DNA of 4,115 nucleotides, from IMG/VR virus record IMGVR_UViG_2695420514_000011; one strand, 5' to 3'. This document shows positions 1 through 375 of the stretch, piece after piece (position 1 is the first letter of the stretch; each line of letters opens with the position of its first letter). Position numbers and translations under genes: made by a program. A model generated the notes under the pieces. It saw only the letters and a program-made list of their open reading frames with translations, was not told the DNA's origin and did no database searches. This DNA comes from a virus (taxonomy: Duplodnaviria; Heunggongvirae; Uroviricota; Caudoviricetes).

Positions 1-21
1 CGATGATCTGGCAGCCTGAGT

Positions 22-375
22 TCACAGATAAAACACTCTCCAGGAAACCCGGGGCGGTTCACTGACCACCGTTCCGCCGACCAGGCTCTGCAAATCTTCC
101 ACCATCCCGGTGACCATGCCGTGCAGATTAGAGACTTTCAGAGTTGGCCTGGCGCTGGCTCCTTTACCGTTCATCTCAAATCCGCTCCCCTGAATGGGGT
201 ACGCCTGATACTGTCGCCCCTGCCAGGTGACCGGCTCACCTTTTTCGTTCTGCTCATTACAGAAAAAATAACGCTCTCCGCCGACTTCTGTCAGATCGAC
301 TTCCCAGAGCACGACCAGCGCGGATTGCTCCGCTTTTGTACACTCATTCAGTGTTTCCTGCTGTATATCCTGCAT
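22..375 (-). CDS. L: Minor tail protein L homolog; ORF ends at 117 aa, so possibly truncated or frameshifted
   Basis: ATG at 373..375 overlaps the M stop by 1 nt (minus strand TGATG). The first ~104 aa (MQDIQQETLNECTKAEQSALVVLWEVDLTEVGGERYFFCNEQNEKGEPVTWQGRQYQAYPIQGSGF...SLVGGTVV) are near-identical to the lambda gpL N-terminus as I recall it. After GGTVV the translation diverges (SEPPRVSWRVFYL) and reaches TGA at 22..24, whereas lambda gpL is ~232 aa with a Cys-rich C-terminal domain. Identity as an L homolog is confident; whether the gene is intact is not. Confidence 0.8.
   Translation of the reverse strand: MQDIQQETLNECTKAEQSALVVLWEVDLTEVGGERYFFCNEQNEKGEPVTWQGRQYQAYPIQGSGFEMNGKGASARPTLKVSNLHGMVTGMVEDLQSLVGGTVVSEPPRVSWRVFYL

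Follow-up and report, generated by a model that had tools for sequence, protein, structure and literature searches.

A lambdoid prophage tail gene L that runs into the terminus of an IS629/IS1203-type insertion sequence

Gene L of a lambdoid prophage was found to break off after 314 nucleotides and to continue, without a single base in between, into the end of an insertion sequence. We consider it nearly certain that an IS629/IS1203-type element transposed into L and that this event accounts both for the truncation of the gene and for the break of the contig inside the element. The window, i.e. the whole stretch of 4,115 nucleotides analysed here, is the complete 4115-bp draft contig BBVF01000070.1 of assembly GCA_001514575.1, as established by an exact-sequence look-up of the 117-aa L product, which returned this single record only; window positions 1 and 4115 are both contig ends, and the record offers no sequence to the left of position 1, into which the earlier reading had proposed to extend. 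The minus strand carries part of a lambdoid tail operon with the gene order T-H-M-L, as in lambda and in E. coli prophages. The features are as follows.

1..61, plus strand: right-hand terminus of an IS3-family element, IS629 or its isoform IS1203 (61/61 nt identity); the contig ends inside the element.
2..19, plus strand: C-terminal end of the transposase (orfB part of OrfAB), five codons (DDLAA) followed by the TGA stop, from the translation; the CDS end in the reference copy, L002 2519, corresponds to window 19.
37..61, plus strand: right terminal inverted repeat (IRR) of the IS, TCTCCAGGAAACCCGGGGCGGTTCA, 25 nt with the CA end that is typical of IS3-family elements, identical to the right arm of the reference copy.
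62..64, no strand: predicted 3-bp target-site duplication, ctg on the plus strand and CAG in the sense of L; one copy lies within the window.
62..375, minus strand: 5' part of the tail-tip hub gene L, the first 314 of its 699 nt, comprising codons 1-104 and 2 further nt, from the alignment to TUM14697 L and PF05100.
22..375, minus strand: chimeric 117-aa ORF, made up of 104 aa of L, a hybrid Ser codon, 12 IS codons and TGA, from the ORF and the alignment.
375..716, minus strand: gene M (distal tail protein), intact, PF05939; the source record has the same coordinates.
709..3942, minus strand: tail tape measure gene (H homologue), 1075-1077 aa, intact, from the ORF and PF20155, PF06120 and PF09718.
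3983..4115, minus strand: tail assembly gene T, 3' end only, the rest being cut off at the contig end; relatives are annotated as 'phage tail assembly protein T'.

The L-like ORF (375..22, minus strand) lies directly after M in the tail operon, its start overlapping the M stop (TGATG), and encodes 117 aa up to a TGA at 22..24. This is about half of the expected length, as a sequence-only reading of the window had claimed. Lambda gpL comprises 232 aa, as does L of E. coli TUM14697, the closest among the intact homologues found, and the gpL length given in that reading was right. Residues 1-104 are identical to lambda gpL at 92 of 104 positions (88%) and to TUM14697 L at all 104, which bears out the close resemblance described over about the first 104 residues; of residues 105-117, none of the 13 matches either protein. 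The Pfam profile PF05100 (Phage_tail_L) is matched only in part, by residues 29-105 (profile positions 1-77 of 206, E = 4e-34), and in the intact relative over positions 1-206. At the DNA level, nt 1-314 of L differ from the intact TUM14697 gene by two SNPs, and from nt 315 onwards the two sequences mismatch. The end of similarity had been placed after GGTVV (64..66), with the stop at 22..24; the stop is as claimed and DNA similarity ends at window 62, 2 nt past the GTC codon of Val104 (64..66). Codon 105 joins AG of L to T of the IS, and Ser takes the place of Arg. Twelve further codons (EPPRVSWRVFYL) and the TGA come from the IS inverted repeat, which makes 13 added residues unrelated to L (SEPPRVSWRVFYL).

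Whole-window searches of 5426 complete E. coli genomes and of phage records returned many lambdoid prophage matches, and the best of these among those listed all stop at window 62-64. The numbers of matches were very high, with plasmids among them, which led us to suspect a repeat. The 61 nt at window 1..61 match, with up to 100% identity, 24,612 places in 4066 of the 5426 complete E. coli genomes (E = 5e-23), where the annotated gene is an 'IS3-like element IS1203 family transposase'. Carrying genomes hold a median of three copies of the stretch and up to at least 40-50. As reference we used a copy from an O157:H7 genome in which the element interrupts espY2 (L002). It is 1310 bp long (L002 1252..2561), is flanked by AAG on both sides and contains a frameshifted transposase CDS ending at L002 2519. 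Its inverted repeats (arms 1252-1276 and 2537-2561) are 25 nt each and 88% complementary (TGAACCGCCCCGG…/…CCGGGGCGGTTCA). Window 1..61 corresponds base for base to L002 2501..2561, with which the 1310-bp element terminates on the right. Transposases of the IS3 family are produced from orfA and orfB by a programmed -1 frameshift and have a DDE catalytic domain. The transposase portion in the window consists of the last five codons and the stop of the CDS that is seen frameshifted in the reference copy, and the IRR at window 37..61 ends in …GGTTCA and pairs with the left repeat of that copy (ends of the 5'-TG…CA-3' type). Judged by this terminal sequence, the element can be assigned to the IS629/IS1203 group of the IS3 family; 61 nt are too few to tell IS629 from IS1203 and IS3411, which are isoforms of it, and the three are treated as one group in the literature (PMC3271280).

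The identification bears directly on the cause of the truncation. A frameshift, a small indel or a sequencing error in an otherwise complete L had been proposed, and the reading frame does change abruptly close to a C4G3 run. Beyond L nt 314, however, the DNA is unlike L in every frame, all 61 nt are those of the IS terminus, and the CCCCGGG run suspected as the site of error is itself part of the IS terminal inverted repeat; such an explanation can be given practically no weight. The neighbouring open frame containing GECFICEL, which the reading had mentioned and discounted, is real, and it was rightly set aside: it consists wholly of IS DNA and is unrelated to the cysteines of gpL.

The junction was examined by aligning the window with lambda L, intact L and the IS end. 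In this four-way DNA alignment the window tracks intact L to ...GGTGGTCAG and then the IS end TGAACCGCCCCGGG..., with neither gap nor overlap. Put base by base, the L side ends …GGCGGAACGGTGGTCAG and the IS starts at its first base, TGAACCGCCCCGGGTTTCC…, with no filler. The switch from L to IS falls at window 62|61, exactly at the canonical IS end (TGAACCGCCCC...). A break that coincides with the outermost base of an IS3-family element is a signature of transposition and not of random chimerism. An assembly chimera, in which L was wrongly joined to an IS end from elsewhere, is conceivable for a short contig of a draft short-read assembly that ends in a repeat, but L and the IS end have no sequence in common through which a k-mer graph could have crossed, and the switch on the exact terminal base is what transposition predicts. 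We regard a chimera as very improbable.

The exact junction 30-mer (window 49..78) gave no match in a search of one genome per species, and the L/IS junction was not found in the 5426 complete E. coli genomes. The single hit with 100% coverage, in E. coli EC8 (NZ_CP060953.1 706798..712176), was considered as a possible instance of the same junction and rejected, being a different event in which an IS3-family element lies in the tape measure gene. There the transposase splits the tape measure gene of a related prophage, which is annotated in two pieces, a separate and independent case of an IS in this tail module.

A mosaic junction with another type of L, or a family of naturally short L proteins that stop at about residue 117, would also produce an abrupt end of similarity. 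Lambdoid tail modules are indeed mosaic, and partial L proteins are numerous: the 90% cluster of the 117-aa product has 2102 members, and most of the 40 that were read bear the name 'phage minor tail protein L, partial'. For the most part, the members read are N-terminal pieces, 70-146 aa long, that belong to draft assemblies of E. coli and E. albertii. Yet among the other cluster members read, 12 of 14 pass residue 104, and all 12 continue after GGTVV with the canonical RRKVYARFLD…; they end merely at contig ends, and none carries SEPPRVSWRVFYL. The family of L proteins of about 117 aa that had been named as a refuting observation was therefore not found among them. The 117-aa product occurs on one contig, its junction in none of the 5426 complete E. 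coli genomes (0/5426), and the foreign DNA that a mosaic L would have to contribute is the terminus of an insertion sequence. Both versions of this explanation strike us as next to impossible. The cluster does suggest that L is a very frequent place for contigs to break, probably owing to its 3' half and the K-I-J region being shared among co-resident lambdoid prophages.

Insertion of an IS629/IS1203-type element, which was not among the three causes proposed earlier, is in all likelihood what happened. An IS3-family element, 1310 bp in full copies, has entered L after nt 314, and its transposase gene reads against the direction of the tail operon. From codon 104, translation of L now proceeds into the right inverted repeat, adds 13 residues and ends at the TGA provided by the IS. 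The contig stops 61 nt into the element, since short-read assemblers are unable to get across a multicopy repeat and break off shortly after entering it. The full 1310-bp IS and the remaining 385 nt of L would then lie beyond the contig end, and the missing C-terminal half, being an effect of assembly, is not evidence that the 3' part of L is gone. From the AAG/AAG flanks of the reference copy and the 3-4 bp duplications made by IS629 (PMC3271280), a 3-bp CAG duplication is expected to flank the element. In the sense of L, the far junction would then read …TCTCCAGGATTTCCGGGGCGGTTCA, followed by CAG and the remainder of L (GCGTAAGGTTTACGCC… / GCGTAAGGTTTACGCCCG…).

The only live rival to this simple insertion accepts the IS and adds an IS629-mediated adjacent deletion or an IS-IS recombination, by which L lost its 3' part and K, I and J may have gone as well. 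With the window being the whole contig, one junction is visible, which leaves room for such a rearrangement. Nothing in the window points to a deletion, however, the upstream genes T, H and M are intact, and simple insertion with a duplication of 3-4 bp is the common outcome, clear duplications having been found at 21 of 47 sites (PMC3271280). We consider an IS-mediated deletion or rearrangement unlikely, though far from negligible.

L is needed for the formation of the lambda tail tip. According to the structure of the lambda virion, residues 1-166 of gpL form its N-terminal hub (HDI) domain and residues 154-232 its C-terminal iron-binding domain, with Cys173, Cys182, Cys205 and Cys212 as ligands of a [4Fe-4S] cluster (PMC10721106, citing Tam et al. 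2013). All four cysteines are present in the intact TUM14697 relative and none in the 117-aa product, the only cysteines of which are at positions 12 and 39; the absence of a Cys-rich iron-sulfur half had been correctly noticed from the sequence alone. Mapped onto gpL, the window product is without residues 105-166 of the hub domain and without the entire Fe-S domain. With about 63% of the hub and none of the [4Fe-4S] domain, it would not be expected to support a gpL-gpJ ring at the tail tip, and a fragment of 104 L residues should not assemble. Given the need for L in lambda and the incompleteness of the fragment, the prophage should yield no infectious particles on its own; it would make no infectious tails unless the IS were excised. 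By comparison with the published gpL structure, L thus appears to be an inactivated, disrupted member of Phage_tail_L whose tail function has probably been lost, and the suggestion that a defective L marks a decaying prophage tail module holds, given the truncation and the loss of the Fe-S domain. Polarity of the IS on K, I and J is possible. In one study, phage production persisted across an stx2::IS629 insertion (PMC7430833).

The remainder of the window carries the genes preceding L. PF05939 covers residues 5-111 of the 113 of M (profile positions 1-107 of 108, E = 1e-31). The start of M is ambiguous (674..716, minus strand): with a GTG at 716, which overlaps the stop codon of the tape measure gene (GTGCCTGA), M has 113 aa, the form to which the above Pfam match applies, and the near-identical M of TUM14697 in RefSeq starts at a downstream ATG and has 99 aa. 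The longer form of 113 aa seems more likely. The tape measure protein has PF20155, the HK97-type PF06120 and the lambda C-terminal PF09718 on record, and its relatives are annotated as tape measure. It is 1075-1077 aa long versus 853 aa for lambda gpH (H at 10542..13103 in lambda), which implies a tail longer than that of lambda if length scales with the tape measure. Between the T stop and the tape measure start there is a 40-nt gap (3943..3982), whereas in lambda T and H overlap and such a T-H gap is absent. The gap contains a terminator-like hairpin (AACCGCTTCGGCGGTT, followed by T8; window 3959..3974, minus strand) in the sense of the tail operon, and the same hairpin sequence is found in the TUM14697 prophage. 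It could be a leaky attenuator in the late operon or merely a stable RNA structure. The right contig end (4115, in gene T) was tested as a high-copy repeat and proved not to be one, with a median of 1 place per genome and a maximum of 4; a second related prophage in the strain is a possibility for the break at that end.

Excision of IS629 from stx2, promoted by the transposase and the IS-excision enhancer (IEE), is a classic case. So is the inactivation of stx2 by IS629/IS1203v (PMC7430833). One might imagine L::IS629 as a reversible off-state from which precise, IEE-promoted excision could restore L and reactivate tail assembly. We think this highly doubtful; if it were true, IS629 would act as a stochastic switch on phage infectivity in strains with the enhancer. 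Few IS elements are as abundant in EHEC O157 as IS629, 62% of its copies in O157 genomes lie in prophages or prophage-like elements, and its insertion sites in prophages vary widely among strains (PMC3271280). The present case is one more strain-specific IS629 insertion in a prophage structural gene and adds no new biology. Neither gpL nor transposition appears in a new light through it, and its use lies in re-annotation. The 117-aa 'L' is best recorded as a pseudogene fragment disrupted by IS629/IS1203, not as a short variant or a sequencing error, and the prophage is to be scored as tail-defective or cryptic. A more general pitfall is that an ORF which stops within a few tens of bases of the end of a draft contig is often fused to the terminal repeat of the IS that broke the assembly. 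The insertion site could serve as a strain marker, IS629 site typing being already in use for O157 lineages.

Compared with lambda gpL (232 aa; PDB 8iyk and others), the window product shares residues 1-104 and its gene the T-H-M-L order, but residues 105-232 are missing and replaced by 13 IS-encoded residues. Among known insertions of IS629, IS1203, IS1203v and IS3411, such as stx2::IS629/IS1203v and espY2::IS1203, the same terminal 61 nt, transposase stop and 25-nt repeat are found. What sets the present insertion apart is its site, L nt 314/315, which is absent from the complete E. coli and species-representative genomes searched, and the visibility of one end only. In known IS629 insertions the target ORF is likewise cut by a stop inside the IS end, and a prophage gene is likewise hit, prophages being the location that IS629 prefers. 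Defective lambdoid prophages of EHEC (Sakai Sp and similar) offer a further parallel: there too, a gene of the tail module has been knocked out by an IS, with its neighbours intact.
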